Origin: Raillietiella orientalis
Taxonomy: Eukaryota
NCBI GenBank assembly: GCA_036172245.1
Contig: JAYWIR010000006.1
Span: forward strand, 5,828,001-5,892,000
Direction of reading: 5' to 3'
DNA: 64,000 nucleotides
The position numbers and the translations under genes were made by a program. Below, in pieces: positions 12,425-46,660 of the stretch. Under the pieces are notes generated by a model. It was given only the letters and a program-made list of their open reading frames with translations, was not told the origin of the DNA and did no database searches. Every line of letters starts with the position of its first letter. The first letter of the stretch is position 1.

Positions 12425-12495
12425 GTAGGATGTGGGTGATATGGTTGGAATGGTGTATAAGATCTCTTATTTAATTATTTCCTTGATTTTTCAGA

Positions 12496-18231: not shown

Positions 18232-18730
18232 ATCACCCGGTTATGCCGAGGCATTTTATTGCATAATATAAACTTACATATTTATTACATTACATAACAT
18301 GGCTGCTTGAAGGAAAAATTTAAGGAAACCACCTGGGTTACGGGTCGCCCTCCAAGAGGACAAGTGAGCATTCCTCAACGCGAAAGTCGATGAGCCCTCG
18401 ACCCATCGGGAAAGACCAGTGAGTCCAGCACGCAAGGCTCGACCTCTGCTGTTCGCCGGGGCGAACGTCGGACTCGCGAGCTTGGTTGACCCTGGCGGAC
18501 GATTCCCTCGAAGATCCGACTCGCTGCTGACCACATTGCCAGGGGCCACCGGCACGCGCCGTTTCGTCTGTAGGAAGCTGAACGATCCACTCCAGCGGTT
18601 GGGAGGGACGCCGGATGGTCGAACTCAGCCTCCTGCTCCCGAATCCCCGAACTTCCCTCTTCGGGTTTAAAGGAGCAGCAAGCAGCACCGCGCGCTCTTC
18701 GCCTGCAGGAGCGCCAATCACTTGCCGCAC
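18232..18730 (-). mobile_element. 5'-truncated LINE 3' end (copy D)
   Basis: Minus strand ends with ORF ..LLEGDP* (cf. EDVEDDP in copy A), then AATAAA (tttatt 18255-18260) and the terminal hairpin ctcgg-cataa-ccggg shared with the other copies. Confidence 0.45.
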
Positions 18731-19177
18731 TGGCGCCGCTGCTGGACGTCTGCGCTAACTACCGGACCGCGTTTTCGGCGCACTCGTAGCGACTCGGTCG
18801 TAGGGACCCGCTGGGGTGCACTCCAGCTTGCTTTTAGCTGAGGTAGAAACGCCGGTGGAGGATCCTACATTCCATCAGCCCGTTCCCAGTTTGACGCAAC
18901 CACTCGCTTAAAGGCGCCCGCATCGGATGTATCCTCTCCCGAGGGGAAGGTGCTGCGGGGCGCGTGAGCGTCCTCTTTGTTTTCGGAGGGTGAATTAACC
19001 GGTGGGCGAATTACTATCGACACGTTCGCGTGTGTCCTCCGTGTCGGTAGTGACCGACATGTGTGCCTTCGCATGGAGAAGAGAGCCTCGCCTAGGCTGC
19101 TTTCCCCGCTGCGACGAGAGCCGCCTAGGCACGCAAACTAGGTACGAAACAAAGCACGGAGAGTAGGCTGTGATGAC

Positions 19178-21590
19178 GTTGCCCGGTTGTGCCTGGGCAT
19201 TTATTATAGAAAGTAACAAAATTATATTGGTGTGGTAAAATTCTTGGTTCTGCCACGTGCAGTGCACCTGCCGAAGACCGGTGCGCAGACCAGCGAGGTC
19301 CGCTTCGGAAGCAGGGGGGAAGGGGACCAAGGAAGGCATCAAGGTACGCTGCTTCCAGGCGTCCTCTGCATTCTTTTCAGGATGCTGGCAAGTTCCGTCC
19401 GTGTCCCGCCCAGGCGGAGTCATATCGAGGCGGTCCTCAGGAAGATGCGCAGCCAGCGTCCTTGCGTCCCTGCCATTTCGGCCCTCTTCTGGCGTCCCAG
19501 GCCGCCACGATCCCGCAGAGACAGCAGGGAACTGCGAGGGGCGCGGCCGGCGGCAGTGCGGTGCCCCGCACGAAGATGCGTCTGAAAATGTTCCTGTGGC
19601 CGCCCACCGGCATACCTAGGATCGTCGCGAGGCGATAGCAAAGGGGCCGGGGACAGCACAGTCCGACAGCAGGTGCTGTAGGGTCCCCTTCCCTCACTTG
19701 TCCCACTCTGAGCGTCCACCGATCCCTTCCTGTATCCAGTGGTGAAGACAGCCTTGTATGGGGTTCCCCTATACACCACCAGCAACGCACCGCCAAGTCC
19801 TGCCACTCGAGAGGGGGGGGCACCACTGCTCCAGAACTCTGGAGGCCACTTTATCTCCTCCGGAGAGATTCCGAGCAACTCTCCCCAGAGCAGAAGTCCT
19901 TGGAGTGGGATACTCGGGGTTGCAGCATCCGTGACCTCCTGAGTTCTCCACGAGCCCAGAAGTCTCTGTTTTGCTGCTATACAGCGCGTCACTTCCCACT
20001 TTGCTGGGATCATCATGTCCCTTTCTTCCCCAAGGCGGCACTGGGGCAAGGGGGGTGGGTGAACGAGGCTTACCGCATCTTCTGCGGGTTGCGGACGATC
20101 CCCTCCAGAGACTTGGGAGCTCCGAATCCTCGCCGCAGGCAGGCGCACCCCGCCTCGCTCACGCCGTGGATCTTCCCCCAGACGAAGACCCGACTCCTGG
20201 AGCTAGGCAGTGCAGTTCGCGGGGAGGCAGGAGATCCGTCTATTCTCACCAGGGCAACCATCTGGTGGAACTGGCGTCCGCAACGCCTCAGCCGTTTCTC
20301 GCGAGCGACGAGGGACGCGAGACCCTTGCAGCCGGTTGCGCTCTTCTCGAGGAGGAGTGCCGGTGCGCACCCGGGCGTGGTCCATGATCTCGCCGCGAAG
20401 GCGAATCCTCTGAACGGGAGCTGATTCTCCATTCTGTCAAGGGGAAAGGAGGTGGACGTCCCGGATGCTCTCCTTGTGGCGTCATTTCTCCCGGCGCGTG
20501 GTCAAAGTTTGTCTCCCGCTTCTCTCCTTTACCCTTGGATCACCGAGGGGAGATTTTCGAATCCTGTCTCCCAGTCGCTTCGGAGCGTTTCTTCGCAAAG
20601 AGCGGAGAACCCGGGGACTGGTTCCTGGCAGGACCAGACCGTGGAAAAGTGGATCAAAGGGCGGAGTGGGGTGGGGTGCAGAGGTTCTCTGCCTCCGGCT
20701 GTTCCTCCGTTCCAGCACCGGCGCAGTGCCCGTCGGCCATCTCCGGAGTGACTTCCAGCCGTCCTCTCACAGGCTGTTATGCGGGGCGACCTCCCTTGGC
20801 GGCACGCCTCCCGAGGCTCCGACATATAGCGGGCCGTGACGGTGGCGCCGATGCGCCACCGCGCGTGAGTAGTCGCCGCCTTAGGTCACAGGTGGTGCCC
20901 TGCGACGGGGGATCGACTCCACCGACCCGCACCCGAAGCAGTTCGGGGGACACAACTCTCCACCGGACAGGAACGAGATGCGGGTGCTGATTGCGTTGGA
21001 ACCCCCCCCCCTCCTGCAAGGGCAGCAGCGCGACCTTTCCAGCTCAGGGGCAACACCGAGCCGTCCGTGGGGAACGCCGGCTGTTCTTCCTAGGGGTCCG
21101 CTGGGAAGGTCGTTCCGCCCAGGCGGTCCGGAACGGGAACTGCCGACCTCTGCCAGTCGCCTAGGCGAGTTTGGTCTTCCCTGCAGTGGCACAGGGGAAC
21201 TCCGGCCTCCAGCCTGGGGACGTCTGTCGCTTGCCCTCAGGGAAGACGGCAGCACCGCGACCTCCAGGGTGGACCACTTTGCGACCTCCCTTCTTGGCGC
21301 ACTCGCTCTCCGCTCCGCGCCCAGCAGCTTTCCACTTCTTCGCAGGCAGAGGTGCTGGAACGCTGCTTTCGTGCTCGACGGAGACACGGTTAGCGGCGCC
21401 GGAGTCCCCGAGGAGGCGGACGAAGGGACGCCCTCGGGCAGTTCTCCTCGCATGCGGGGAATCCGGAAGCTGAGGGAGGTTGCGCGCGGTCGCCCCTTCT
21501 CCCTCCTCGATGGCAAGGGGCGGTTGCCAGTGCCTCAGCGCCGTCTGTCTTGGCCTGCGTCCAAAGACCAGGCCCGTGCTCAACTGCCAT
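19178..21590 (-). mobile_element. Decayed L1/Tx1-like LINE ORF2 plus 3' UTR (copy C)
   Basis: Minus strand has FVWGKIHGVS..CLRRGFGAP (cf. FxWxGK..GGLG) and GLLLWGELLGISPEEIKWPP, matching copy A (GLLRWGELLSIPLDVLEWPP). The 3' UTR aligns with 21640-21730 and 36500-36590. The part above ~20450 is weaker. Confidence 0.7.
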
Positions 21591-21592
21591 TA

Positions 21593-23340
21593 CACCCGGG
21601 TGCACCGGGGCGTTTACTTTCTTAAAAAAACAAACAAACATGTGTAGGGCCTATGCCCCTACAGCGTTCGATAAAAACTCTGAACTTGCCGAGTAGCCAG
21701 CGCGCAGACCGGCGAGTTCGACTCGGCAGCGGAGGGGGAAAGGAAAAATAAAAACAAAAAGAAAACACTATTTACAAAAGCAGGGAAGGGGTCACGTTCC
21801 GCTGGGGTCGTCCTCTACATCCTCTCCAGGATGCCGCATACGCCCCAGATGGGAGGACCATCCGGCTGCCGTCCTCAGGAAGCGCAGGGAGGAGCGGATG
21901 ATGTCCCTATCGTTCTGTCCACCAGTGGCGTTGCTCCAGGCCACCACAATCCCTCGCAGGCAGCAAAGGACTTCAAAGGCTGCGCCAGGCGAAAGGGCAT
22001 CGCTCACGAGGAGGAGCTTCATCACGTCCCTGGGATCGTCCGTCGGTGCACCAACGGCCGTTGCGTAACGCAACCACAGGGACTGGAGGGCAACACAGTC
22101 AAGAAGCTGGTGCGGGAGGGATTCCTGTTCCCCGCACCTGACACCGTTCGGGTCCACGGCCCCCCTCGTCCAGTGAGATCGGCGGGCGTTGCTGGGGAGT
22201 CCCCAGTGCAACACCAGGAACGCCGACTCCTGCCACTTCAGGGGGAGGGTCCGGGTATTCCTCAGCACTGGGGGCCACTCGAGTACATCCAGCGGGATGC
22301 TCAGCAGCTCGCCCCAGCGCAATAGTCCTTTCGGTGGGGCACTTGGGGTCTCAGAGTCAGTCAGCTGGTCCGTGGTCCAACCACCTTGTTTCCTCTCTCT
22401 TCTTGAGATGCTACAACGGACCTCCCACATGGCCGGCTGGCTACTGCCCAGATGTTCCTTGAGGTGGGACAGAGCTGCAGCAAGGGAGGTCCCATCATCT
22501 CATGCACTCGAGGCGGGCTGCACGATGATGTCCTGCAGCGAGCGGCTGTTGTAAAAGGAGTGCAGCAGTCGCTGCCTCAACTCCGGGCTCGCTTCCTCAA
22601 TCTGAGCCCATGTGCGAAGGCTTTTCTGCAACCAGGAAGTGCCGTTCGGGGGCCGGCAGGAGATCCAGGTGTTCATCCTGATCAGCTTGATCACTCGCCG
22701 AATTGCCAGTCCGCAATGGAACAGGTACCGGCGTTTGTGGCGCTCTAGGAAGGTAGACGGTCCCGCGCAGCTGCTGGCTCGCTGAACCAGGCGCCGTGCA
22801 GGCTCGCACCAGCTGGTGCTCCACAACTTCGCCACTAGGGCAATTGTCCTGAACTGCAGCTGCAGTTCCAGTCGCTCCAGCGTGAGGAGGCCGAGGTCTC
22901 CATCGCAACTCGGAGCACACAAGTCCTTCAGGCGCTCGACTGCCGGTGACCACCTTCTGACCTGTGTGACCTCGTGTCCTTCCTCCTCTCTGTTTCTCAT
23001 CTTCGGACAGGATCTGGTCGATCGCAGGTGGCAGCTCGCTGGGACAATCGGGCCACTCGTCAGCTAGGATCCTCTGCTCTGTTCCCTCCCCCCCCTTCTT
23101 GCGCGCCCATCGGACCAAGCGTGAGAGGCGATGTCTCCCGAAGCCCCCTCAGGGTCTCACGAGGGTACCCCACCAGGAAGGGTTCACTCGCTCTGCTCCT
23201 CGCTCCGTGCCGATGCCCAGGGCCGAATCTGAGATGCCGGTGCCACTTCGAATTCCCAAGGTCACTCTGCTGCCGCCGCCTACCAAGCCTCGGGTTGCCT
23301 TGAGTGGCAGCCCCCCATCTTCCACGAGGGGTTCTCATGG
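21593..23340 (-). mobile_element. L1/Tx1-like LINE 3' portion (copy A): post-RT region, zf-RVT, structured 3' UTR
   Basis: LKDLCAPSCDGDLGL (LCxPxxxGGLG motif) and LHWGLPSNARRSH..DPNGVRCGEQESLPHQLLDC..LW (zf-RVT CxxC...H...C relic), with frameshifts. Homologous copies lie elsewhere in the window. Confidence 0.85.
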
Positions 23341-23409
23341 ATGCGGGCAGCCTTCGTGTCCTTGCAAAGCTGATCGTTCTCGGTCCAAGGACCAACGATG
23401 CTGCGGATC

Positions 23410-24625
23410 TTATAATCATTATATATATATATATATAATGATTATAAGAAATAAATATATGTGTTTTATATTTGAATGTCGTTAATAGTTCGTTTATTAT
23501 ATATATTTTATGTATATTTGTATGTAATGTATCTTACAGAGTCTGCAAAAAATAAATACATATGTTTATTATATTCATTAATATATATCTTTATATATGG
23601 ATTAATATATATTAGAATGATTGCAACAATAAATGTAAATGTTTATTATAAATACTAATACGTGTATTGATATATAAATTAACATATAGAAATTACTTTC
23701 ACATACATATTTGTTGATATAAATAATCATGCGCATCAATATATATTATGGATGTATATAGTGAAAATTGTAAAAAAGAAAACATGAATGTTTATTATGT
23801 GCATCAGTGCACTTTTACATATGTTACAGATATATAATCAGTCAATATATAAATATCGAATTATAAAAAATGAAAAATAATGTTGGCAACTAACAATGGT
23901 GGGAAAAAAAACAAAAAGAAAATTTTGCTTTTCCTTTACCAACGCTCAACAAACGGCGCGTCCTCAGGAAATGACGAAATCTGTTTTCAGGACTTTAATC
24001 GTTCAATAAATGTATATGTTCATAATTGGATATTTATATATTCATTTCATATGTATTTATCATATGAGAAAATATCTATTAATACGTATAATAAACATAT
24101 ACATTTATTTTTTATACTCTTCAGTGTTTATCCTAATAGTATATATTGATAAATATCATAATTATATCACCAGATTTTGTTAAAATAGATGTATTTAGTT
24201 AAAAACCAATATATAATTATGCGTTTCAGTATACATAAAAGGCGTATATACTTATTTTTTGTAATCTTTAGAATATACAGTAATCTACATTTGAATTTAT
24301 ATATCAAAATACATATTAATATATAATGAACGTATGTATTACTCTCATTAATTTTTATAATTTATATTTATGTATACATAAATATATGTAATAACATGCA
24401 CATTAATAAATTGTAATGAATATATATGCTAAAATAATAATACCATTAATAATACATATGTTAATAAATATCAAAAAATATATTTGTTAAAATAAATTTG
24501 TATATTAACCTATGTATCCAAAATGAGTAGTTACACTTAGTTTTTTAGAATCCTTATAATATATATTAATCTGCACATTCAATTCATACATAAATATATA
24601 TAACAGACGTAGGTATTTATTTTCA
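23410..24625. repeat. AT-rich island 2 with one core cassette
   Basis: Almost the same length as island 1. Right border gatcgttcgggatttcgggc (24627-24646) resembles 3081-3100. Core at 23845-24041 is flanked by 20-bp inverted repeats with 1 mismatch. Confidence 0.75.
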
Positions 24626-25086
24626 AGATCGTTCGGGATTTCGGGCTGAGAATTTTGAACCGGACCCCTGCGGATGGCCTGATCATTGTCTTCTGCCAGG
24701 TACGGATGCTTTTTCGTGCCTGGCAGGTGGTCAGGGCAGCATGATCGCCACGACTGGATCGATGATTTGGCAGCCCTGCACGGCGGGAGCACCGGCGGGA
24801 GCTTCGCGCGTTCCTCCTCGCAGACTAGACCTCTGCGAGTGAGGTGACCTCCCAGCGTGCGTGGGGGAGGCCACCGGAGCGCATCCGTGCAAAGTTCGGG
24901 CTGCGCATCGCGAACGTTTCGGTGGACTTCCAACCGTCGTCACAGTACTGGGAGAGCTCCTTTGGTAATGGGGGAGCTCCTCTGGGACTGGGAGAGCGGC
25001 GTTGCGGAAAGAGTTGTTTGCGGATGCGCCTGCTGCTGCCGTTGCGGTGGACCACGCGCTCGCACCACGCGGCCAAGGAAAGATGG

Positions 25087-25545
25087 AAGTCGCTCTCGTT
25101 GATCGCGGATTCGTATAACCCGGCTAAGGAAAGGTGCACAGCTCTCGTATAACGCGGTGCATCAGCCCCCTTCAACCACGCTATGGATAGATTTCAATTT
25201 CGTCGAATAGTGTCAGTTCAGCTGTTTTTGAAAAGAACACGAGCAGCAATTAAGCAGGTCAAATCCCATTTCATTCCAATCTTCGTGAGAAGATACATTT
25301 TGCAGAGACGGGAGCGGTAGACATAGAATGGTTTAAATTGGTCGAAAATCAATAAAGCTCTAATGGCTAGATAAATAAAAACTTTCCCTTTTTCTTTTTG
25401 CTTTGAAGTAAAGTAATAGATATGCTACTGTTATGACTATCAATTTTGTATCTTTTAAGAATACGATCGATCCTATTATGCATTTGAAATCCATAGGGCT
25501 CGTATAACGCGGATTCGTATCCCCAGCGTTATAGGAGAGTTACCT
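25087..25545. mobile_element. MITE-like element with pogo/Tigger-style ends
   Basis: Reiterated subterminal motif ctcgtataacgcgg(attcg) at ~25094, 25144 and 25499. The right end agcgttataggagagttacct is a degenerate inverted copy of the left agtcgctctcg.../ctctcgtataacgc. Interior is AT-rich and non-coding. Confidence 0.55.
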
Positions 25546-27249
25546 CACCTTGGCTGAATGACGTCAGCAGTGCATACCTCACTCTCCACGCCGTCATGAT
25601 GCACTGCATGGAGTCCGCTTCGGCGCTTTTCGGGTCCTGCATCGAGGGAGAGAGCTCAGGCGCTGCTGGCACGCGATGCCTGTGCACCCCTGGAGGGAAC
25701 GTGCAGGGTCAGCTAGCTCTGTCGCCATCGTCGCTGTGCTTCCTTCCTTGGCCGTACCTCCTCGGGCGTCGCTGCCGAGTTTCCACGGAGACGGAAAACG
25801 CCAGGAGCGGAGCTTCAATTCTTCTTGAAGAGCCACCGGAGGTCCAGCCGGAGTTTCGAGCCAGGCAAAGTGGCCTTCCGTCCGTCCGCCCCACTTTACC
25901 CTCGGCTGCAACTTTCATATGTCATCGCCATTCCCTTCCTCTCCCCCCCCCCTGCTCGAAGCAGCCCAAAATGTCGTAGGAGCCCTCGGAGACAGAGCGC
26001 GCGTAGGTGACCGCGACCGTGAAGGCGACCGCACGTGCGTCCGTCCCTGCGACCTCATTCCGACCGCCGCTGCGGAAAGACATCTTGCGCGCACGCACGA
26101 GGCGCCCCCTCGTTGCCGGTCTCCTAAGCAACGTTCTCCCTCCAGCAGGAGGGTGGGGACGCCCCTGGAACCCAGTGTGGGGCTCGATGGAGGCTGCTGC
26201 ATCCTTAATGTAGCAAAAATCTTTCCTCTGAAAGTTTTGGCTGCTGGAAGTTTATCCATCCACCCTTCACCCTCTGGGGCGTTTCCCCCAGTCCGACTCG
26301 CAGTGGGGTGAACTCATTCCAGCAGAAAAGCCGCCCTCACCACTACGGGCATGACTGTTGCCATGCAACCGCGCACGCGCCGCTTCCGTCGGTCCCCCGT
26401 GGTTCGAGGGCGAAGGAACGAATGGTAAGGCACAGGGAAGAAGGGGCAGGGCGACGCCGAAGAAACCCTTTCGCGGGCCGCCTGGTGCCCGGCACCAACG
26501 GGCCCGTCCGCTTCTCGGAATCTCCTTGGCAACTCGGAAAAGTCTAGACTGGAAAGTCTAGACGTGGCTCTCCCGGTGAGGATGGTACGAAGAAGAAGGT
26601 CCTCGAAGAGTTCTAGCAGGTCCTCCGCATCGGACCAGGTTGTCTTTCTTGCACTGACCTCTTGGCCACCTGAGGATCTTGGACAGGGGATTCCCTAAGT
26701 GATTCAAAGTCACGGTTTCATGGCTCCGCACGGGGGCCAGCTTCCGCCATCGGGCTTCCTCCGTACGGCATTACTGCCTCGTTCTGCGCAGCATCCGTCC
26801 GTGATGAAATATCATCCCCTGGCGCCGGAGCGCATGTCATCCGCATGAAACGGGGAGAAGACACCGTCCCCAGCAGTCTTAGGGAGGGAATCCCGAAGAG
26901 ACTTCTATTTCCCACTTCCTGGGGTCCTCCCTACTCCCGATTTCCGACCGCGAACGCGAGCGCGTGCTTGAGACGCGCTCCCTAAGCCAGGGGCATCCGC
27001 AGCGTCATCTCGCGAGAGGACTCGGAACTCTCTGCGCGTTCGAAATCGGCATGGATCTCTTCAGCGGTGCTTCGAGCGCGCGCCGCAAGGTGCCGCGCGC
27101 GCGGAAGCCAACGCGAGCTGATCTTCGTGTGACCTCACGCCATCCCGTCGAGAGTGCAAACGAGACGGATGAAGCACTCTCTGTTCCATCCGCGTGCTCG
27201 TGGACCATCAAATGGTGCTTGCCCCCATGATCACCGGCATCAAAAGCGG

Positions 27250-27590
27250 CACCGGAGCTTTGTGGAGCCTCCTTGGGGGTGGGTGGGGGGCAAAGCTCTT
27301 TTAAACACTGTCCACGCTGCCTGAGGGTGCTTGTGACTCTCCAAGATGGGGGATACCCTGGGAGGGACCACCCCATAAATCCAGGAAGACTCTGGAGGAA
27401 GGAGTCCATTCCTCTTGAACTTGGTAAGGGGACCCCGGAAGGGTACCCTCCACCCTGGCTGTCTTTGAAGGGAACCCCGAAGGGAGTTCCTTGTTCTCTC
27501 TGGACGGATCCCCCGACAAGGATTTGCTCCTTGTTTCTTCCTCTGAAGAGAACTGTCGCGGGTTCCGAGCCCTCTCGAGAGATGACGCTC
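27250..27590 (-). mobile_element. SINE-like repeat, 3' half
   Basis: Reverse complement aligns with 8340-8560 (ctcttcagaggaagaaac, gactccttcctcc, cttcctggattt, gagtcacaagcaccctc, gtggacagtgt). Confidence 0.7.
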
Positions 27591-27779
27591 AGGATGTCCC
27601 TGGCTTCGTGAGCGCGCCGCAGGGACGCGCTCGCGCTCGTGGTCGAGCGATCTGGCTGCATCAAAACTCCTGACCACTTTCGCCAAAGAGGACCCTGAAA
27701 GCGATTCATGAGCGGCTCGGCACCCGAGGTCTCACGAGCGCTACCGCTGCTGCTGCACGCATGAGATTCGTTCTTACAG

Positions 27780-28300
27780 CAAGCAGGTGTGGGGACTTCT
27801 TGCCGCTGTTTTCATGGAAGCAGTCCGTACGTCTGCGCTCAGGGAGCTACAGGAAGCAAGAAAAGATAACAAACCAGAGGACACGGGTCTTCTTTGCACG
27901 CCCCCAGGTGACGTGCAATCCCGGAAAGATGTCCAGATGGTGGTTGGCGCGCCGATGCCGCGATCCTGTTGGTCACCTCTGCGGAGCGTCTCACGCTGAA
28001 GGTTGCATTTTCGGCTGATTTGTCGCTTCGGAATGCCCGTAGTGAGCGGCCACAGCGACAGGAGGCGGCTTCCCAAAAGCAGGGGTTCTCCCCGGGGAAA
28101 GACGTGGAGCACCAGCGGCGCCACCCGGAACCAGGAACGGACTGCCGAGAGGCAGAATCCCTTCGGAGTCCCGGAGCACCCGGACTGCTTCCGCGTTCAT
28201 CACGAGTGCCCCTCCCGACCGGGTTCCCAGCCAGCCGAGTTCCAAGTTGGATGGGACTGCGTTCACCTACAGGGCGACTCGGAGAGAGGTGGTCACTGTT
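27780..28300 (+). mobile_element. Decayed LINE ORF1 fragment
   Basis: GRIPS...CFR and CVHLQG knuckle relics. LCTPPGDVQ is similar to LCTPGGNVQ at ~25680. Confidence 0.35.
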
Positions 28301-29049
28301 TTTGCGCTCCTGAGGCTGCTTTCAGTAGAGGACAAGGAAGGGAGAAATTCCGTTCCTCCTTGGATCGAGGCCTTCAAGGCCGAAGGTTCGCTCAGCAGCG
28401 GCATCACTCGCCTCCTCCTTCCGGAACAACGGGCAGCAGGCTCTGCTGCAGGGGTTTCGCTTCCGGCAGTTGCCGAGGTCAGCTGGGGTCGAGAAGGCAG
28501 TTCTCTTGGTCCAGCATAGGAGAAGAGCGGGCTCGGAGAAGGTCAAAGTTCATAGGAGGATCAGGTTTCTGAGAGGAGGGAACAGCGGAAACCAAGGGCG
28601 TCGCGATTTGCCGGATCAGGGAGGCGGACTTTCGCTCTTTCACCTGGAAACTGTCAGCAACCACTACATCACTCAGTAGGCAGAAGGTGCGCCATCAGCG
28701 CCAAAGAGCTTCCTTCGCCGGTTGTCATGGAAACGGCAGCTCTTGGTTGCTTTTTGTTTGGCTGATGGGAGTCCTCTCTGGACCTGGGCGCTCCCGTCAT
28801 GCTTGCCATGGCGAAACGGAAGCGGCACGGGTGCGGGATGCCCGCGTGGGTCGAGGAAGTCTGAAAGGGCGCGGGCGATTTTAGGCGGCTCTTCTGCCTT
28901 CTACCCGTGGGACGCGTGGTTCCTGGGATTTCGGTTTTTCGCTCGCTTCGTCCCCTCCCCTCGAGGGAGAGAACACCGAGCAGTCGGCTGCTGCTTATGA
29001 GGCTGCTGAGATTCCCAGCTTCGGGGGGTGGGGGAGGCAGGAATCCCAT

Positions 29050-29490
29050 CCTCTTTCTTTCCTCTTCTTCCTTAAATCCTCTTTCCTTTCTCCTCCTCCT
29101 TCCTCTCCTGTTTCTCCTCTCCTCTTCCTCCTCCTTCCCCCCCTTCCTCGTCTTCCCTTCTTCCCCTTTCCTTTCTCTTTATTTCTTCCTCCTCTTTCAC
29201 AACATCCTCATCCTTTCCTCGTCTTTTCCATTCCTATTTCGTCTTCCGAGGAAAAGATGAGGATTTCTTTCCTCTTCCTTTTTTCCGGAGCCTGTTGTCC
29301 TCGGACTCTCTGGAGAGCTCGAGTAGTAATATTTTTTCTACCTCCTCTTCTTTGCTTATTTCACCTCCTCTTCCTCTTTGCCCTCTTTTTGGTTTCTTTC
29401 CTCTCTTACTCCTCCTCTCCTCCTTTCCTTTCTCCCCCCTTCCTCCTCCTCTTGCTTTTCTCGTCTTCCTCCTCCCTTCCACCTCCCCGC
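29050..29490 (+). repeat. Polypyrimidine (C/T-rich) low-complexity tract
   Basis: ~440 nt almost entirely C/T. Shorter tracts occur at ~30270-30380, 38250-38325, 58780-58920 and, purine-rich on +, at 49615-49680, 55370-55435 and 60100-60195. Confidence 0.85.
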
Positions 29491-32199
29491 GAAGGGAGAG
29501 CTGTATTCGGGAGTTAGCGCTGAGGAGCAGGCAGGAGTGCCAGCCTCTTGACCGACTTTGCTGGTCGCCGTGCCCTCCAGCAAGGGACGGGAGGACGAAA
29601 GCTCAGGAGTTTTGAGCGCTCCTGCTCGTCCGCTCCATCCGCCGCTCCCGGAGGACGGGGTAGGGCGCATTCCCGGCGGCCCGGAAGGGAGAGTGCGGGC
29701 TCGACCCTGTGGCAACGGTCCGAGGTGAACCAAGTCAATATTGCCAGAGCACGCAGCCATTCCGAGTCGTGAGCGTTCGAGGTGGTCTTCGCGCCTACTC
29801 GGATGGTTGTCGACGCCTCCCCCGGCTGAGCCCAGGAGTGGGCCACCACCTTTTGCCGGGAGGAAACTCTCTGCGCAGGACTCTTCAGGCCGCCCGATTT
29901 CCCTCATCCCCTAAGAGGAGTGGACCGGCGCCGGCTAGTCATCGCGAAAGGATCCAGAGGGAACAGAGGTCATTCTATCTCAGCAGCAGGAATCGCCTGC
30001 AGGCACGGGAGGAAAGACCCACGAGAGATGGGGGAGTTAGGGGGGGGGAAGGAAAGACAGAAGCTGGTTCAGGGAGCATTCTCAGCGACGCGCTTGCGGA
30101 ATGTCGGCTTTCCAATTATTGCCCTTCGAGGGTGGAGAGGCAGACGGCACCGGTGTGTCGGCCGATGCAGTCGAAGAGGTCGTTTCCAATCAGCAGCCGT
30201 GGCCATAGAGACTACAACTCCAGAGCCAGTTGGCCGCGGGCTCCCTAGAGCGCTTGGGCATTTTTTCCACCTCCTATCCTCCTCTTCGCTTCTTCCTCCT
30301 CCCACTCCCACCTCCTCTTCTGCCTTTCTTCCTCTTCCCTTTCTCCTTTCCTTTCTCCCTTTCTCCTCTTTCCCATCCTTCGTGAACCGTCCCATGATCA
30401 CGAAGAGAAGGGCTATCGCTACCAGGGGCGTGAAGATGTCCCCGAATTTCAAGAAGAGGAAGTTCTGCGAGATGCCCGAGCTTCCCAGTCAGAGGTCCCG
30501 GGATCCCTGGAGCGCCTGGACGGGAAGGAAAGAGCAAAGCCCACCGAGACCTCCGCGTACCGGATTGCCTCAGAAGGAAGAGAAGGGAATTTGCCCTTCG
30601 TTGCCGCTGCCCTCTGATGTATGGACCGGTTCGTAGAGTCGTGCAAACTAGTGGGGCTGGGGGAGGCGGCAAACGACCGGGGATCCTCACGGGCAGATCC
30701 TCCAAGCAGCCTTGGTGTTCCGTTGAGCGACTTCTCTGCTGTAGGCGCCTGGTCCATCCGTCTCCAGGGGGACGGAGCAGGAGCTCGGCCCATCTCTCGA
30801 TGGCGATGGCGCCATTCTGGAGCGGGCCGCTATCTGAAAAACCGTCCTAGACGTTTCCTCCTTTTTTTCCCCGGGCTGCCCGTCCCCTTTCCGGTGAAGA
30901 TCCGGGCACAGAGCCTTCGCTTAGAAAAGCCCTGTGGGGCACCCCTGATCCTCCCGAAAGAACTGATAGCTCCGCGCAGGAATGCCGACCCGTCCTCCCT
31001 CCCGGTAGCTCCCGGCCTCGGATCCCCAGCCGACCCAAAATCCTGGCGACAGGAGGCGACGGGGTTCTGGGCTGCCACTCTCGAGGCGCTCCCAGACGTC
31101 CCCGAGGGAGGCATATTGCAGGACCGGACGCTGTAGTCCCGGATGACGGTCACGCCCCTCGCCGCAGTCCTCAGGGCGTGCGGCGGTAGCAGCCCGCCCG
31201 CGGGCTGGGGATTGTCCTGTGTGGTTTAAAAGGTCGAGAAACTCCTGGACGGCTGGACGAGCCGGAGCCACCCGTCATCCCTGGAGAGAGGGATCCTCTT
31301 AGGAGTATCCCCGGAAAACTCCCCCGCTATCCTCTCCCTTGAGCGTAGATGCAACGGTCCCCCCGTTGCGGTGGAAACGGCACATCCTTCTACTGCTGCT
31401 GCTCCGGGGCTGCCGCGGCAACCGGCGCGGGCACCTGGTTTCCTAGGGGCCCAGAATGTTACCGAAGCGGGGAGACAGCGATCCTTCTCACACACCTCCC
31501 GTCGAACTGCCGTGCCTGAGAAAAACTCTGGAAGGGAAGACTGCCCTCGACGCTCCGCGACCTGCTGCGGCGATTCTTCATGCGGGGCGGGCTGACGGCA
31601 GGCATCGCAATGGCATTGGGACGCCGTACCTCCGCACCGTCTACGCAGCCCGCCTCCGTGGGCTGGGGTCTGAGGGGCAGCAGAGGAAGGTCGTCCCTGG
31701 ATGAGGATGGCTGCGGGGGCGGGCGGCTTCGCCTGTGGGAAAATCGTCAGCATTCAGCGCCATCTCTGGAAAGAAAGGAGCGATCGGCACCAAAGACCCC
31801 GCTCCATCCCATTTCAATCTCTTCTTTCCGGGACCTCGGTCCCCGGTGACCAGTAGCTTCGCTTATTTTTGAAAGAGCGTCCCAGCGTCACCGGGTCAAA
31901 ATGCAGTCTCAGGGATCGAGGAAACCAGGAAAATCATCCAACCCGGAGAACCTGGAAAGCCGCGCGAGAGGCCCGGAAAAGGCGTGTCCCCCTTTCGTTT
32001 GCCCTCCGTTGCAGAGGCGTTCCGGGAGGATGAACCAGTCCGGACGGGATCCGATCGCGTCCGGAGTCCCCTCTGGCGGCGAAGACGCGAAGTCCGTGCC
32101 GCTGACCTGGCCGCCCGCCCCGAGGTGCCCCAAGTCTCTCCCTGACCGCGTTCGCTTCATCTTCCGACCCGGAGGTCACCGCGCTGGAACCCTCCGCGA

Positions 32200-32790
32200 G
32201 TTTTCATCGAGCTGGTCGAAGCGGGTGGATTGGGGGCGCGACACGGAGAAGGGCTGGGGTCACGTGGTTCATGGGTTTCTGCCGAGCAACGCAGGCACCG
32301 TCCTCCTCGATTTGCGCCTTCGGGGGCACGGCTTATGGAGGATCCCGTAGTGGGACGGGCAGGTGCGTTGGCGGTCCGAATGCCCCGCGCCTACGGGTCG
32401 CAACCTGGGGACATACGCTCCCTCCTATCCAGCGGTGGTCAGGAAGCCCGGGGACCCCGCGACTGGCGCCACCTGATCGAACTTCTGCAGGGAGGTTCTC
32501 CTCTCCTTAGAGACCGCTGCACGGAAGCTACAGGTCACCTGCGCAGCTCCCGCGTGCCGGTCGCACGCACGCAGGGCCAGCAAGGAGGGCCAAGAACTTC
32601 AGAGTGTCCTTCCAGGAACACAGTGTCCTTCCAGAGTGCCTCGGGACGGACGATCACGCTCTCGACCCGGAGCAGGAGTGACTTCAGGGCCACGTCGGTC
32701 ACTTGGGAAACAGAGAAGACGCAGCTCCGTTGCGGAGCACCGCAGTAAGACTCATCCACTCCTCCAAAACAAAAGGAAGAGATGACCCAC
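32200..32790 (-). mobile_element. Decayed LINE ORF1 fragment with CCHC knuckles
   Basis: Minus strand CLRCSAETHEPRD(P) fits C-x2-C-x4-H-x4-C with the last Cys lost, and there is a second relic upstream. It shares tccataagccgt with the + fragment at ~46590. Confidence 0.55.
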
Positions 32791-32799
32791 GAGGGCATT

Positions 32800-34330
32800 T
32801 GGCCAGTTCCGCGTTAGGTCGAGCGATTCCTAAAAGAGGGCGCGCGGAGAGGTGCAGAATGATTCGCGCCGCAGAGAAGAGATGGAGGCGCGGGACTGCG
32901 CACGAGAGGATTCGGCGAGGTTTCAGCCTGTTCTTGCAGTGGGGAGGACATGAGGCGGCGGTGATCCTCGTGAGGAGCTGCGTGATATCCCGCGGACCTG
33001 ACTCTGGGCAGAGACAGGCCTATGGCTACCGCCTACACCTTGGGAATGGCGCGAGAGGATCGGCTCTTGGTCGGAGCAGTCGGGTCTGCGCTCAAGATTC
33101 TGATTTTCACACGGGTGCCAGCCAGTTCAGATCGGTCGTGGTGGTGCTTGATGTGGTCAGCACGAGGTCAGCACCATTTCGCTCCTTCGCACGGGCTGCT
33201 GCACGGCGCAAGGAAGCGTGGCAGCTCCTAGTGAAGAGCATCTAGATTGGGAGGAAGACGGAGGGAGGAGTCGTGACTTTGGTCTCCGAAATGGAGCTTC
33301 AGCTCTCCACAAAGTGAGGTGAGTTCAGGAGCACGATCTGGAGCCGGGGGAGGCTTTCCATGGCGAGGCGGCTGTGGCGGCGGTAGGAGCGCTGGCCGAC
33401 CGCAGGGCGGTAAGCCACAGATTGGCAGCCGGCGAACTGATCGTGCAAAGGCGGATCCTACAGGGTTGCCAGAATCATCAGGAAGGTGCGCTCCCGCAAG
33501 AGGACGTGCGAAGGTGAGCCGACAACGGTTCCAGGGAAACTGCTTCTCGCTGTTGGACCACTTCCCTCCTCTTCATCCCCCTTTCCTAGCCCTCGCTTAA
33601 CCATGGAAACGCACAGAGGGTACAAATGACTTTCACCCCGGCATTCAGAGGAGAACGCTGTTTGCAGGTTTCGCTACCCCCGTCCTCTCCCACCCGCTGC
33701 AGGAAATCGTGGGCTGCCCGAGAAGGCCACCTGGGCACGGAGCACCCCACTTGCAGCCGCGCCCAACAAAAACGCGACAAAGTGAAAATAGCGATGGCCT
33801 TGCAAGATGGGGACCGCCCTAAGACATCGTAGGAAAGAAGAAGCAGTTGGGATGCCGGACAGCGCGTCAACTGGTTGACACATCTACCCCCACCGCCCTC
33901 CCCAAAGGAATTCTCCATCGTGCGGACATTCTCTCAGAGGAGGCAGAGATACCCCTAGTGTTTATGGACAGCTCCCCTTGAGGTGGAATTCCAGCTGTTG
34001 CCCTGAGGATCCCATGCAACGCTCGATTCCACCACTGGACAAGCAGGAGTGTAGCGCCATTTGTGGGAAACGAGGAACCTTGCCTCACCTACCTTTCGAT
34101 TATGCTACCCTCCCGAATCTCTGGGAACGCTTCGCTGTGGCCCTCCTGCTCTCGATGGAGAACGGCAGGGAGTCCCTCTTCTCGAGCGCGGCTGGATGTC
34201 GCCCTCAGCCTCCCTCGCAGCCCTGCGCTGCCTCCGTGGGATTGCAGAGGCTAGAAGACGCGTCGAAAGAAGCAGGTCGCAAACGGCGAGGACACCGCAA
34301 CCGTCTTCTCCTTTGTGAGGAGGGCAGCAG
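32800..34330 (+). mobile_element. Decayed L1/Tx1-like LINE ORF2 3' portion with zf-RVT
   Basis: QFRSVVVVLDVVST (cf. QFRTIALVAKLWST), IPCNARFHHWT (cf. LPSNARRSHWT) and ICGKRGTLPHLPFDYATLPNLWERFA (cf. CGEQESLPHQLLDCVALQSLWLRYA) are collinear with copy A. Confidence 0.75.
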
Positions 34331-34399
34331 GATGACCCAGAACAAAAGGAGGAAGTTGCCAACGTCTTACAGGGGATGCTGAGGACTCCAGGAAGAAAT

Positions 34400-34855
34400 G
34401 CCCGCGTCGTGCGGCGGTCTTGGCGCGCGGCACCACTAGACGTCGTGGGTTCGAATCCTGCCCGGGGAACGGTTGACGCCAGGGGGAAATGAGTGCGTCG
34501 TTGGTCCGAGTTCCTCCCGCAAGATGGCGCTGGTCAGCCCAGAATCGGGTGAGGCGCTGGGAGAGGTAAAAAACCGGATACCCCCCGATGAGTGGTCAGG
34601 ACTGGGAGTCGACCTTCCTTCCAGGAAACAGAATCAAGGAGTCCCATCGGAGTTCCCTCCAGGGGGGTAAACAGGGAGTGCATCCTTTCCAGGAGGTCCC
34701 TCCGGAGAAGAAATTCTAGGAGCTTTCCGGATTCCCTTCGGAGACAACCCTTCGGTTCCCTTAGGGAACCCCTCCTGGGCGTGAGAGGGGGAACGGACTC
34801 CCTTTTCCGAAGCCCTTTCCTGGATTCCCTCCCAGGGTACCCCTTATCTTGAAGA
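34400..34855 (+). mobile_element. SINE-like repeat copy with internal deletion
   Basis: Head gcccgcgtcg; B-box GGTTCGAATCC at 34448-34458 followed by tgcccgggg as at 7967; 3' motifs ggaacggactcc and cctggatt..gggtacccc..tatcttgaag. Confidence 0.7.
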
Positions 34856-35719
34856 ACGATAACCTCTTCCATTCCCCATCCCCTTTTGCAACTCATTCTC
34901 AAGATTTTTTAGGCTGGATTTTGTATTTTTGCCTTTTTGTTTACCTCTCCCCCCACCCCACGACCCCCACCTCTCCTGTGCGGACGTCGTCGGGGGAGCT
35001 GCCTGCAAGAGGCAGCGCCAGACTTCGTGTCCAGGCGAGCGCTCCTGACAGGTCGCGGGGTCAGTCGTCCACCCTCGCTGGGGACGCCCAGCCCCCCGCA
35101 GCTTCGTTCGGAACGCCGAGCAGGGGAAGCCTTTGAGAGCACGCGGTGGGATCACGGGGCCCCTTGAGTTCCTCCTGTCCCTCCCGTTCAGGAGCGGGGT
35201 GGTTCCTCTGGAGGGTGGCTGGAGCTGTGCTCTCTGGCCTGCCTGCCGACGAATCTCTCTTGGCAGTCTGCCGAGTGGCACGCCCGCAGATATGCTTCCG
35301 GGGTGCTCCAGGGGCGTCCGCGGAACCGCTTCGGGAAGGCTTCCAGAGAAGAGGTCCGCAGACTCCAGTGATGCTGCCCGCAGCCACGCGAGGGCCGACG
35401 GCGCCATGCAAGATGCAGCACAGATTGAACTTTTGACGCCCTAAGCCCCTCTGCGCGGCTGGCCCTTGGGGTACTAGGGGTGCGGGCGGGGGCCCCTTCG
35501 AGGTCCGTTCCGTACCGTCGACGGATGCTGCATCTGCCGCGTGCGGACCGTTCGCGAGATCTGCTCGACGAGCGCGCGCAGGGGGGAGGGGGGATCCGGC
35601 AGCGGCTGCATTTCCCCCGAACGGGGGGAGTCGGTTCTGGGGTGGTTGCCTGGAGACGATGGGATGCGACAACAGTGCAGCTCTCCGGAAGCTCTGCGGA
35701 CGGTCTTCTCCGGATAGGA

Positions 35720-36050
35720 ACTCGCCCGGAGGAACGGACGTCCAGCCTCGGTCCGCGCGCGCTTCCTCGGAGGTGCAAGCAGGCGCCAAGGTGACTTCTG
35801 AGGGTCGGATGTCTTCCCCCCATCGCCAACAGTGAAATCCTTTTCCCCCTTCCGCGACACTGTGGGCTGCGCGCGTCGCTTCCGGCGACCTGGGCCCCCT
35901 CTTTGGCAATGGTAGCAGACGTGGGGACGCACCAACAGACGGTTTCGAGGTTCCTCTGGTGCCTTGAGGGGATTCTCCTCAGGACGCCGAATGACCTATC
36001 GACTGAGCCGCAGGAAGCGGACTTGGCTCCTTGAGGAGAGACGCTCATCC
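35720..36050 (-). mobile_element. Decayed LINE ORF1 fragment with three zinc-knuckle relics
   Basis: RRIPSR..VRPHVCYHCQRGG, then QCRGRGKR and CLHLRGSARGPR: three successive degenerate CCHC motifs, as in Tx1/L1 gag-like ORF1. Confidence 0.6.
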
Positions 36051-36452
36051 TCGGGGCTGCACCGTCGCCCTGGGGGTGGTCCTAAGTGCTTGGTCGGGGG
36101 GAGTTCTCCTTCGCACGTGTAGCCCCCTCTAGCGGGAGGGATGGGGGGAAAAGAGGTGCCTGCGCGAGGCGGCCTAAATGAGGCGCGTAGCGACGCGTCG
36201 AAATGCACCGCACCATCTTTCAGACTGGGAGGGGCAAGCCGGGAGCGCTATTGTCGCGTCTCCGTGGACAAGTGGCTCTTCCGCTCCGTGAAGAAAAGCC
36301 GGCTACGAAGGGGCAGCCGATTCTTCCCGAATTCTGATTGAGGGGCTTCATTTCAAGTATCCGCGATGGGAATGCCCTCAGGCAGTCATGTCGCTGAGCG
36401 ACAATCCATGAAGCGAGATGTTGCAGCCCCGCTTGGCTATTCTGGTTGTTTT

Positions 36453-37430
36453 ATCGCCTGGTCACGCCTGGACGTTTATTATGAAAATAATAAACATAGG
36501 GGTGTAAGGCCATTGGCCCTACAGTGTCCGAAAATGTTCAAAACCTGCCGAGGGACTGGTACGCAGGCCGGCGAGGTTCGCCTCGGCAGCGGAGGGGAGA
36601 GGGAGAAGGCAAACAAAAATAAAAATAAAACAAAAAAATGTATACGAAAAAAAGCTGGGAGGGTTAGGGAAGGGATTACCGGGAGCTGGAGGGCGCCCTC
36701 TACATCCTTTCCAGGATGCCGGCAAGTTCCATCTGAGTGTGTCCCAGGTGGAGCCATCTTGCTGCCGTCTGCAGGAAGCGCAGGGCGAAGCAGATGGCGT
36801 CCTTGTCGCGCCATCCTCTTCTCGAGTAGCTCCAGGTCGCCACAATCCTACGTAGGCAGGATCAAAGAGCTGCTGGGGATGAGGCAGGCGAAAGGGCATC
36901 GCGCACGAAGAGGCGCTTCGTCACGTCCCGGAGATTGTCCGTCGGTGCATCAAGGGCAGTTGTGTAGCGCAAACAAGGGGGCCGGAGGATAACAAGCAGG
37001 CGTGGGAGCTGGGATTCCCATTCCTCGCACCTGTAACAGTTGAGATCCACAGCCCCCCGGGTCAAGTGAGACCGACGGGCATTGCACTGGAGACTCCAGT
37101 GCAACAGTAGAAGTGCCTACTCTTGCCACTGCCGGTTGTCTGTCAGCGCTGAGGGCCACTCGATGCCTTCATGTAGGATTCCCAGCAGCAGGGGTGCCAC
37201 GACTAGGGAGGTTCTTTGCGCACATGTACACGCGGCGGTCTGCACGATGACTTCCTTCAGCGAGCGGCTGTTGTAGAAGGAGCGCAGCAGTCGCTGCCGC
37301 ATCTCCGGGCTCGCTTCGTTGTTCTGGGCCCACGTGCGGACGGTTCCTGCAACCAGACACTACCGCTAGTGGGCCGACAGAAGATCCAGTTGGTCCTGGT
37401 CAGCTGCAGCTCCAGTCCGGAACAACCTCT
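36453..37430 (-). mobile_element. L1/Tx1-like LINE 3' portion (copy B)
   Basis: RQRLLRSFYNSRSLKEVIVQ and HWSLQCNARRSHLTRGAVDLNCYRCEEWES closely match copy A; the 3' UTR hairpins and AATAAA are conserved. Confidence 0.85.
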
Positions 37431-37439
37431 TCCAGTTAA

Positions 37440-38035
37440 GAGGCGACTCCGTAGGAACCTCCCAATCGATCCGGGAAGGCCTCCCCGATTCCTCCTACAC
37501 CTGGGAGGGAACCTTGAAGGGGATTCTCTCCTTGGTGGTCTCCGGAAGGACTTTCTGGAAAGGACCCGCTCTCCCGTTTCCTCCTGTGAAGAGAACGCCA
37601 AAGGGGTGCTTCCTGAAGGGAGCAGCGTGTCCCAGGAGCCGCTCCTGGGACACGCTGGAGAGGTATCGATATACCAACTTTCTTGTAGGGATGCCCTCCA
37701 CCCCATTCAAAGGAAGCATCTCCACTTCGACAACCGGAGGGGAACAGCCCCGAATGCGTTCCCAGTTCCTGGAGGGACCCCGGAGGGTCAGCTTCCAATC
37801 GCGGATGCTAGTCAAGGGGGCCGCCCAGCTTCCACCAGTGCCGCTCCCGAATAGGCCGACCAGCGTGTCATTTTGCGGAGGGGGAAGGGGAGACTCAAAA
37901 TCCACGACGCACTCCATTTTCGGCATCGAACCCTTCCCCCCCTCCCTTCCCCTCCTTGGCGGCATTCGAACCCGCGAAATCCGGCGCCTCCGTGCACGCG
38001 AAGGCCGCCACAGTCGCACGACCGACAACGCGGGC
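37440..38035 (-). mobile_element. SINE-like repeat copy
   Basis: Reverse B-box gcattcgaacc at 37962-37972, head (rc gcccgcgttg) at 38026-38035, body cccgaataggcc and gggtcagcttccaatc. Confidence 0.7.
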
Positions 38036-39599: not shown

Positions 39600-40020
39600 C
39601 GCAGGGCTGCCTCTCCAGAGCATCAGAAGCGCACTACGCCCTCGGTTGTTCTCTTCAGAGGAGGAGGAAAGAAGAGGAAGACCTTTACCCGGTTCCCTTC
39701 CGAGAATGATCCCCTCCAGGTGGTCCATCCGGAGAGAATTAGGAGGAAGAGGTTCCCTTCGGCATTCCCTTCCGAGGCAACCAGGGAGAGGGTTCTCTCC
39801 CCAGAAGTGAGCCAAACGGATTCCTTCCTCCTCTGGGACCTTCCTGGATCCATGGGGCAGTCCCTTTACTAGGGGGTGGTTACCCCCTAGGCTGGAGAGT
39901 CACATGAACCCTCGGGTGACGTGGGCAGTGTCAAAGAAGAGCTTCGTGGGTACCTCTGAGAGGGAGGTGAGGGGCTCTTAAGCATCCCTGGAGAACCAGG
40001 AAAAAGGAAAGGGAAAAACA
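39600..40020 (+). mobile_element. SINE-like repeat, 3' half
   Basis: ctcttcagaggagga, ttccttcctc, ccttcctggat, gagtcacatgaaccctcgggtg, cagtgtcaaagaagagcttcgtg and an A-rich end. Confidence 0.7.
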
Positions 40021-40389
40021 GCTCAAAGGGAGCAGTGAAAGGAGAACCCCTGGGGATTCCCCCCCCTCACAACGCAGTGACTCCTCCCTCGCGGGTCCCT
40101 GCTGCTGGAGCCAACCTTCGAGCTTGCCTGCTGTTGCGATGCCGATCGACGTCCGGAGCGACCCACATTCGGGGGTGGAGTTGACGACGCGCCTTTGCCC
40201 TGGTCGGCCGGCGCTCGCATCGCTGCGCACGGGGAGGGATCGGGAGCTTTCGGGGTCGGCATCGACCCTGCGTCTGGGAAGGGCATGAGGTGTGGCATGC
40301 GGGAGGACGGGAGACCTGCAACTTTCTTCGGGAGCGTCCCGGTCGGGCGATCGAGTGGGCAAGGGCGAAGAAAACTCCTCCCCACGAAG

Positions 40390-41150: not shown

Positions 41151-41329
41151 GCAACCTCCTTCACTCGCACCTTTCCTGGGCGACTTCCACCGCCGCAGGA
41201 AGGAGCGGCGTGGAGGAAGGGAACTGACTTGCAAGTGGTGTCCTTCGAAGGAAGTCCGGGAGCAACGCAAGGAGGTCCAGCACGGGAGAGCTGGATCGTT
41301 CCGGGTTGGAGGGGAGGGTGAACTTTGCA

Positions 41330-46299: not shown

Positions 46300-46660
46300 T
46301 GGCGCCAGCAACCTACCAAGACCGTACCAACGGCAGCTCCATTTCAAGAGACTGGCCTTGGTGGCCAAGTGTTGGACCACCCGCTGGTGAGCCCCGGCGC
46401 GTCAGTTCCTCAGGCGAGGGTCCCGTTCCGAAGGACTGGTGACGCTGCTTTCGCGCCACCTTCGGGGAACGACCGCCTACGGCATCCTGCTGAGGCACGC
46501 GCCCGTCCCGGTGGGCGAACGTCCGTGGATCTCTTGCCACTCGGCAGACACTCGGAGGAGGTGGGTATTGATCTGACCACGTTGGTCCCATCCATAAGCC
46601 GTCCCCTTCGCCGCAGTGGTGTCTTCTGTTTAAGGTCCTTTCCTTTCCAGGTGCCTGGAC
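46300..46660 (+). mobile_element. Decayed LINE ORF1 fragment
   Basis: PSISRP...FCLRS parallels SSISRA...RCLRC in the 32200-32790 fragment. Confidence 0.35.

Follow-up and report, generated by a model that had tools for sequence, protein, structure and literature searches.

Introduction

Structured 3' tails have been published for L2, R1 and R2 elements and for a plant lineage of L1. In the L2 clade, the stem-loops of eel UnaL2 and of zebrafish ZfL2-1 and ZfL2-2, which provide the precedent for a tail function, consist of an upper stem with a specific loop, an internal loop or bulge and a lower stem; they lack a long poly(A) and are directly followed by a short terminal repeat, at which reverse transcription starts (PMC1636434, PMC4176376). 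In the L1 clade, the lineage 'monocot 1a' (LINE1-1_ZM, ZmSINE2/3) carries within its last 45-50 nt one conserved hairpin, common to its partner SINEs, in which changes in the stem are compensatory and bases of the loop are conserved (Ohshima 2012, PMC3472496). For human L1, an element of the relaxed type that ends in poly(A), a positionally conserved stem-loop in the 3' UTR, bulged 4-6 bp away from a loop of 5-7 nt, has been proposed, its role being a hypothesis (PMC5135761). In view of these L1 hairpins, the contrast drawn in the initial annotation of our locus, between LINEs with stringent 3' recognition and mammalian L1 relying on poly(A), is too sharp.

Here, three LINE copies (A, B and C) on the minus strand of a 64,000-nucleotide stretch of the Raillietiella orientalis genome (contig JAYWIR010000006.1; the window, to which all coordinates refer) are compared with 275 3' ends from the same genome, gathered mostly via LINE queries and with a profile of the terminal hairpin. 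The ends form nine subfamilies, whose ORF2 3' ends are 38-86% identical; 61 ends in clusters of three or fewer were left out of all consensus counts. The tail resembles those of UnaL2 and ZfL2 in its parts and in lacking a long poly(A), but its nested stem lies more than 100 nt upstream of the end, the short terminal tandem repeat of the UnaL2-type start is absent from the copy ends, and all subfamilies share their inner loop, unlike ZfL2-1 and ZfL2-2, which use cognate stem-loops to discriminate and have element-specific loops. It shares with human L1 such a bulged, positionally conserved 3' UTR stem-loop. With 'monocot 1a' it shares the L1-type element, the compensatory hairpin and the conserved loop bases, and for both stringent recognition is deduced from comparison only. 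In contrast to that lineage, it has three hairpins over 105-145 nt and no poly(A) tract, and no partner SINE with the same tail was found: the 275 ends, most of them retrieved by LINE queries, contained no group with a shared non-LINE head, and a SINE family search with an orphan end at position 18232 gave only that end itself and one 41-nt match.

An L1-group LINE family

The near full-length copy L259 encodes an AP-like endonuclease (PF03372, E 2.9e-14) in N-terminal position, before the reverse transcriptase (RT; PF00078, E 1.1e-19). Its best relatives among solved RTs are human L1 ORF2p (E 1e-37) versus R2 (E 1e-14), and the named protein matches, none of them a Tx1 reference, come from fish and plants, carry both RT and zf-RVT and show 25-31% identity. 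A C-terminal Cys-His motif of ORF2 (zf-RVT) and CCHC knuckles of ORF1 are visible, with Pfam E-values of 6.6e-4 and 4.9e-4 that both fall short of the curated cut-offs. The C-terminal query found zero matches in a search for longer proteins, and among 30 ORFs of the window an ankyrin ORF was the sole Pfam match. Target-site duplications of 8-18 nt flank 64 of the 192 copies tested (subfamily I was left out because of short flanks). The endonuclease, the closeness to L1-type RTs and 5' truncation with target-site duplications bear out the L1-like assignment made earlier.

In subfamily D the duplication side begins with TCG in 23/25 copies, and 10/25 are inserted at one site of sister RTs. This is a target preference, a trait of the Tx1 clade that is not exclusive to it. 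Tx1-clade LINEs (Tx1 in Tx1D, Tx1-Mar in Mariner-N4_AMi; PMC4494074) have the same L1-group anatomy and likewise combine subfamily-specific target motifs with recurrent insertion at fixed positions within other transposons, but in our family the sites hit lie in the coding sequence of sister LINEs. A covarying 3' tail of Tx1 elements was not described in the literature searched. An origin of subfamily A from an endonuclease-less, 5'-deleted master was refuted, as 17 of 19 copies continue into intact RT; L091 is a single internal deletion, and the break point common to subfamily A copies is an insertion hot spot.

The three window copies are 5'-truncated, decaying members of three subfamilies of this L1-group LINE, all on the minus strand. 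Copy A (21589..22933, subfamily A) comprises the C-terminal part of ORF2, 80% identical by tblastn to the C-terminal frame of L259, and the 3' UTR. Its stop codon, placed from the sequence and the subfamily A consensus frame, lies at 21815..21817, and an 11-nt target-site duplication with one mismatch occupies 22934-22944 and 21578-21588. Copy B (36451..37405, subfamily B) has an approximate 5' end, and no target-site duplication was found at its ends. The 5' end of copy C (19177..20430), an old member of the C lineage, is likewise approximate (tblastn matches reach 20408 and homology coverage stops at 20400-20500).

Architecture of the tail

On the sense strand, an outer stem (P1) usually frames an inner hairpin (SL1) and is followed by a second hairpin (SL2) and a terminal one (SL3). 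Pairing across the subfamily consensuses was compared with a null from 3000 of our own simulations, run on a tree in which three nodes are weak (33-39% support); the helices tested were picked from the same data. Tree length is about 3.4 substitutions per ORF2 site.

SL1 comprises 6 bp, not 5 as first described, around a 6-nt loop. It lies at 21696..21713 in copy A (CUGCGC loop, 21702-21707), 36555..36572 in copy B (CUGCGU, 36561-36566) and 19277..19294 in copy C (CUGCGC, 19283-19288). As the initial annotation noted, it is paired on the sense strand in copies A and C with the help of G-U pairs (6/6 in both) and has two mismatches in copy B. Both are G-to-A changes relative to the subfamily B majority, found in only 2/32 and 6/32 B copies, and hence represent decay rather than design. 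Among the consensuses, mismatches occur in the C majority (C/C) and in subfamily H (G/G). In total, 50/54 consensus cells are paired against 42.7 under the null, a count matched by 19/3000 simulations, and four of six columns show double-sided change (32/3000). The loop is nearly fixed as CUGCG(U/C/A), with the first five bases identical in all nine subfamilies. In the minor-lineage ends it is closed by at least five of six pairs in 26/61 cases, versus 7/54 control windows. SL1 lies 103-143 nt from the element end, a distance that is not fixed.

The strongest signal of all modules comes from SL2, which the earlier annotation had missed (copy A, 21643..21663; copy B, 36503..36523; copy C, 19232..19256, decayed and different in sequence from A and B). 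In the six alignable subfamilies 58/66 cells are paired, which 0/3000 simulations reach, and five columns carry double changes (5/3000). Subfamilies E, F and H, which could not be aligned, are left out of this count: in F and H this segment forms a hairpin of 11-12 bp with a different sequence, and E has no clear SL2.

The flagged outer stem was recovered in all three copies (A 21688-21694/21721-21727, B 36545-36553/36581-36589, C 19271-19276/19303-19308), and in copy A it extends from 7 to 8 bp (21687..21728; arms 21721-21728 and 21687-21694). Two compensatory positions had been claimed for it. One, where A and B have G-C and C has A-U, genuinely separates the subfamilies. At the other, the pair is U-A in A and G-C in C, while the subfamily B majority has an unpaired G/A; window copy B pairs here, in the innermost G-C of its stem, only through a private base seen in 1/32 B copies, so this apparent compensation is a private mutation. 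The stem core is invariant, its extension shifts, and a homologous stem is missing in subfamilies F and H, which were left out of the outer-stem and pseudoknot counts. In the remaining seven subfamilies 54/63 cells are paired (104/3000 simulations), with four double-change columns (3/3000). Subfamily comparison lends the outer stem moderate support, weaker than that for the inner and downstream hairpins, and it is the least reliable of the four helices. Consistent with this ranking, RNAalifold on nine representative copies, a check proposed with the original observation, returned SL1, SL2 and SL3 without the outer stem.

SL3 sits between the AAUAAA and the element end: copy A, 21589..21618 (mutated signal position 21613-21618, SL3 21595-21609); copy B, 36451..36480 (AATAAA 36475-36480, SL3 36457-36471, decayed); copy C, 19177..19205 (AATAAA 19200-19205, SL3 19182-19196). 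All 45/45 cells are paired with zero change, an invariance that is partly built in, since ends were gathered with the SL3 profile. Copies end about 4 nt (NNAA) past SL3, without the poly(A) tract of relaxed-type mammalian L1, and 60/64 duplications begin 2-6 nt past the hairpin. SL3 rather than the outer stem, which lies 103-143 nt upstream of the end, is the closer counterpart of the UnaL2 signal.

It is tempting to read the nested domain as a pseudoknot, formed by a 5' bulge (GRACY) and the bases just after the outer stem, or as a relic of an HDV-like ribozyme. Such a ribozyme is a nested double pseudoknot with P1.1, P4 and a catalytic C in J4/2. In the candidate helix 31/35 cells can pair, two columns show double-sided change, and 5 bp persist in subfamily A, where one side has undergone a deletion and the opposite side a substitution. 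However, neither count exceeds the null (289 and 479 of 3000 simulations), the helix ranks tenth of 903 candidates, below an unrelated non-covarying one, it is absent in F and H, no bases separate it from the outer stem, and there is no space for P1.1, P4 or J4/2. In 17000-39000, an Rfam search up to E 5 gave five matches; all scored far under the gathering thresholds, none lay on the stems and none belonged to a ribozyme family. With the putative P2 not above the null and no ribozyme match, we rejected this reading, which we consider very improbable.

Selection on source lineages

Folding energy does not distinguish the domain: the three window copies have z-scores of -1.0, -1.6 and -1.5, not beyond chance, and the nine consensus domains range from +0.2 to -2.4. 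Only 4/9 consensus domains (A, E, F, I) have the nested fold as their minimum-energy structure, and SL1 is missing from the minimum-energy structure in 5/9. The case rests on the comparison between subfamilies. Unexceptional energies, the private mutation posing as a compensation and an outer-stem core that carries no covariation, because it never varies, would all suit stems that are complementary by chance, in GC-rich sequence passed down from a single ancestor. Against this, SL1 and SL2 stay paired through repeated double changes, the loop and terminal motifs are fixed over the full depth of the tree, and lineage-level changes are depleted in stems. Chance is thereby already largely refuted for SL1 and SL2, and we regard it as a most unlikely explanation overall.

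The depletion is greater for shared changes. Private substitutions, seen in one copy, affect 222/10651 stem sites (2.1%) and 634/24889 other UTR sites (2.5%; SL2 of subfamily E is excluded from these counts), while those common to at least three copies affect 2.7% and 4.7%. Selection is therefore far stronger on lineages than on copies, and inserted copies decay almost neutrally. In plain identity the SL1 stems (73%) and SL2 stems (67%) hardly exceed the other UTR (66%), the last value being inflated by low-complexity runs; G-U and A-C cells (8 versus 5 of 228) hardly tell the strand. As judged from the nine subfamilies, the tail is under structural selection in source lineages. The selected RNA element posited initially is accordingly located in the 3' UTR, on the sense strand, with its structure kept by selection, while RT recognition is what we infer beyond this.

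Proposed function of the tail

The tail combines a conserved 3' stem-loop, compensatory changes and a conserved loop, the traits of stringent-type tails. We posit, with a probability of about 0.6, that it acts in cis as a modular RNA element on which retrotransposition of the active source elements depends, a stringent-type signal for 3' recognition and initiation. The AAUAAA signal would set the transcript end and the ORF2 protein may bind the tail through a conserved contact at the fixed SL1 loop, with the outer stem as an accessory frame presenting SL1. SL2, which keeps its shape with subfamily-specific letters, may serve as a spacer or as an element of cognate specificity. SL3 would set the register, placing the start of target-primed reverse transcription immediately 3' of itself and not inside a poly(A) tail.

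Alternatively, the hairpins may be selected for RNA 3'-end formation, stability, export or translation via host factors, or for ORF1 binding, with SL3 bringing AAUAAA and the cleavage site into register and SL1 offering a binding loop to a host protein. The AATAAA, unchanged in 9/9 consensuses with 30-31 nt from its start to the element end, and the large distance of SL1 from that end would fit, and an SL1 loop that stays constant while the ORF2 C-terminal proteins diverge strongly is expected for a slowly evolving host partner. The missing poly(A) tract, however, suggests that the tail itself dictates a fixed RT start site, and comparable tails tested in other LINEs act via ORF2 (PMC4176376). 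We consider this alternative possible but clearly less probable than the recognition and initiation signal.

A more specific version of that signal, which we hold to be doubtful, divides the labour between a family-wide CUGCG loop, an SL2 that keeps each ORF2 on its own RNA and an SL3 that fixes a poly(A)-independent RT start within a few bases despite an AAUAAA-ended RNA. A subfamily-specific SL2 would then explain why, although the subfamilies insert into one another, each tail type stays with its target motif. If true, the family would offer a natural series on the switch of L1-type RTs between priming guided by structure and priming guided by poly(A).

The kind of signal described here is already known from other LINEs, and the understanding of LINE mobility is unchanged. 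The family adds a well-supported structured and selected 3' tail of the L1 group outside the monocot lineage and mammals, with natural compensatory variants in nine subfamilies as ready-made swap material, and it accords with the view that the L1 clade started out with stringent recognition.

Element identity and subfamilies

The three decaying, 5′-truncated LINE copies of the window all lie on the minus strand and each belongs to its own subfamily: copy A (21589-22933, with an 11-nt duplication), copy B (about 36451-37405) and copy C (about 19177-20430). The 210-Mb genome was searched for relatives, and the best 40 scored relatives per copy were taken from 800-2800 first-look candidates. In L259, a near full-length relative, ORF1 carries two CCHC knuckles; the element also has an AP-like endonuclease (E 2.9e-14) and a reverse transcriptase (RT; E 1.1e-19), and zf-RVT is matched weakly. 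Among its solved relatives human L1 ORF2p scores best (E 1e-37, versus 1e-14 for R2), and its database protein relatives reach only 25-31% identity, with the exception of one unnamed protein at 78%. The element is an L1-group LINE. A young subfamily A copy (L091:6047-8647, plus strand) carries an internal deletion of ~2.9 kb, by which ORF1 and the RT's C-terminal half are fused in frame into one 866-aa reading frame without endonuclease; this type of deletion was seen in one copy among 41 matches.

Scanning about 1.02 Mb (the window and 258 loci) with a profile built on the final 40 nt yielded 275 distinct 3′ ends, and a reversed-sequence control on a smaller 0.82-Mb set gave 0 matches. Nine clusters of 17-32 members define the subfamilies (A 29, B 32, C 21, D 25, E 19, F 31, G 21, H 19, I 17), and 61 further ends fall in clusters of three or fewer. 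Members differ by 4-12% from their own consensus and, being mostly top BLAST matches to one query each, are biased towards less decayed copies. The nine consensus ORF2 3′ ends are 38-86% identical; the groupings A+B, C+I and F+H are supported in the subfamily tree, and three nodes are weak.

The window holds further remains of this LINE group. A lone terminal motif (18232-18259, minus), consisting of an AATAAA-like signal and the terminal hairpin SL3, follows unrelated upstream sequence; the genome search assigned it to no family, and it is probably a very short truncated copy. More decayed ends and ORF2 C-terminal pieces at 53445-53480 (minus), 45753-45792, 46352-46924 and 33637-34178 (all plus) represent more distant subfamilies. 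A separate repeat family occurs in both orientations with numerous 65-85% matches (7923-8566, 27293-27441, 34423-34551, 37765-37992, 39792-41152, 43275-43495, 52489-52847, 54951-55208). At 12487-14247 (plus), an AT-rich island (39% GC) within GC-rich repeats contains an open reading frame of 586 aa that encodes ankyrin repeats (Pfam Ank_2, E 8.9e-37).

Covariation of the 3′ UTR hairpins

The stems reported in the initial annotation were borne out in position in all three copies. On the minus strand each copy shows the flagged outer stem P1 with a 5′-side bulge of 7-8 nt and, inside it, the hairpin SL1, whose 6 bp close a CUGCG(C/U) loop. Folding-energy z values of -1.0, -1.6 and -1.5 do not single out this domain. 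Pairing was compared, for each base pair in each subfamily consensus (a cell), with a null in which the parsimony changes of each column were placed independently on the tree in 3000 runs.

In SL1, 50 of 54 cells pair (a count reached in 19/3000 runs; null 42.7), four of six columns show two-sided change (32/3000), and the CUGCG loop is constant in 9/9 subfamilies. The strongest signal came from SL2, a second hairpin 20-40 nt downstream and absent from the initial annotation, with 58/66 cells paired in the six alignable subfamilies (0/3000) and five double-change columns (5/3000). F and H have a different hairpin of 11-12 bp in this segment, and E has no clear one there. SL3, located 3′ of AATAAA, is paired in 45/45 cells with zero change, an invariance that stems partly from ascertainment. 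P1 was counted in seven subfamilies, F and H being without it. Its core is nearly invariant and hence uninformative (40/42 cells, 392/3000); its extension, kept in D, E and G only via a one-base bulge, pairs in 14/21 cells (269/3000) with three double-change columns (30/3000). Over all nine P1 columns the counts are 54/63 cells (104/3000) and four double-change columns (3/3000). RNAalifold on nine single copies recovered SL1, SL2 and SL3, with two-sided change in 10/22 pairs, and did not recover P1.

The initial annotation pointed to the right region but chose its weakest helix. Of its second compensatory column, the exchange between A (U-A) and C (G-C) stands; in the B majority the column is G/A, and pairing in the B copy of the window depends on a base present in 1/32 B copies. 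Pairing of the bulge with the bases that follow P1, as a pseudoknot, was rejected: 31/35 cells can pair, yet the null was not beaten (289/3000), and such a fold has no linker. An HDV-like ribozyme is very unlikely: the domain does not match the anatomy of such ribozymes, and Rfam gave no ribozyme match in 17000-39000.

Not all members of the group have the SL1 loop: three lineages (L123:2294-2470, minus; L121:2930-3102, plus; L037:260-437, plus) retain both the terminal hairpin and the GGACCUC bulge motif, with the SL1 loop different or missing. Two E-type copies (L021:397-560 and L040:2257-2400, both minus) have in common a short deletion between direct repeats that removes the SL1 3′ arm. 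The cause is either slippage that recurred or descent from a lineage able to move without SL1; the latter would speak against an essential role of SL1.

Selection on source lineages

Stem sites carry single-copy substitutions at 2.1% and other UTR sites at 2.5%; for substitutions common to at least three copies the figures are 2.7% and 4.7%. This indicates near-neutral decay of inserted copies and constraint on the source lineages. Between subfamilies, the P1 core, SL1 loop, AATAAA and SL3 are 87-100% identical. Plain identity of the SL1 (73%) and SL2 (67%) stems is scarcely higher than that of other UTR (66%), which counts against a simple reading, as does a minimum-energy fold that includes SL1 in only 4/9 consensus domains. 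The main alternative to recognition of the tail by ORF2 is that selection was for 3′-end formation, stability or host-factor binding, which we consider possible but rather unlikely.

Element end and target sites

Duplications of 8-18 nt were found in 64/192 tested copies, and 60 of the 64 begin 2-6 nt past the hairpin end, most often with four bases in between, the last two of them AA. Copy 3′ ends have neither a poly(A) tract nor a terminal repeat. The distance to the element end is 30-31 nt from the start of AATAAA in all nine consensuses and 103-143 nt from the SL1 loop. The source RNAs carry a conserved, covarying structure, and the element has a fixed end without poly(A).

Duplication-start motifs differ among subfamilies A-H (A AGCAG-like, B ACCA, C TCATC, D TCGA, F RCAG), with TCG opening 23/25 D duplications. 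Each type of tail thus goes with its own choice of target, the pattern to be expected were every RNA inserted by the protein it encodes. When 3′ flanks were mapped on L259, copies of D, E and H proved to be inserted repeatedly into sister LINEs in antisense orientation, at fixed coding sites: D at position 4691, in the RT KAFD codons (10/25 copies), E at 4435 (7/19) and H at 4308 (11/19). The D insertions are separate events, because their hosts differ from one another; the H insertions, with flanks alike, may include some duplications.

We posit, with a probability of roughly 60% for the mechanism as a whole, that the tail is bound by ORF2, that SL3 sets the start position of reverse transcription, that SL1, held in the frame of the variable P1, is the contact common to the whole family, and that SL2 acts as a module spacer or as the source of cognate specificity. 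Published accounts describe, in a monocot L1 lineage, a conserved 3′ hairpin that shows compensatory changes, keeps certain loop bases and is shared with SINEs (PMC3472496), the need for upper stem-loop, hinge and terminal repeat in UnaL2 (PMC1636434), recognition of cognate stem-loops by zebrafish L2 ORF2 proteins (PMC4176376), a bulged stem-loop in the human L1 3′ UTR (PMC5135761), and target preference in the Tx1 clade, with other transposons among the targets (PMC4494074); a review also exists (PMC3747384). In the literature searched, which was largely without subscription papers, no paper described a Tx1-like element with a tail of three hairpins. The tail hairpins are a real, selected RNA structure of an already known kind, and copies A, B and C are fossil versions of this signal.
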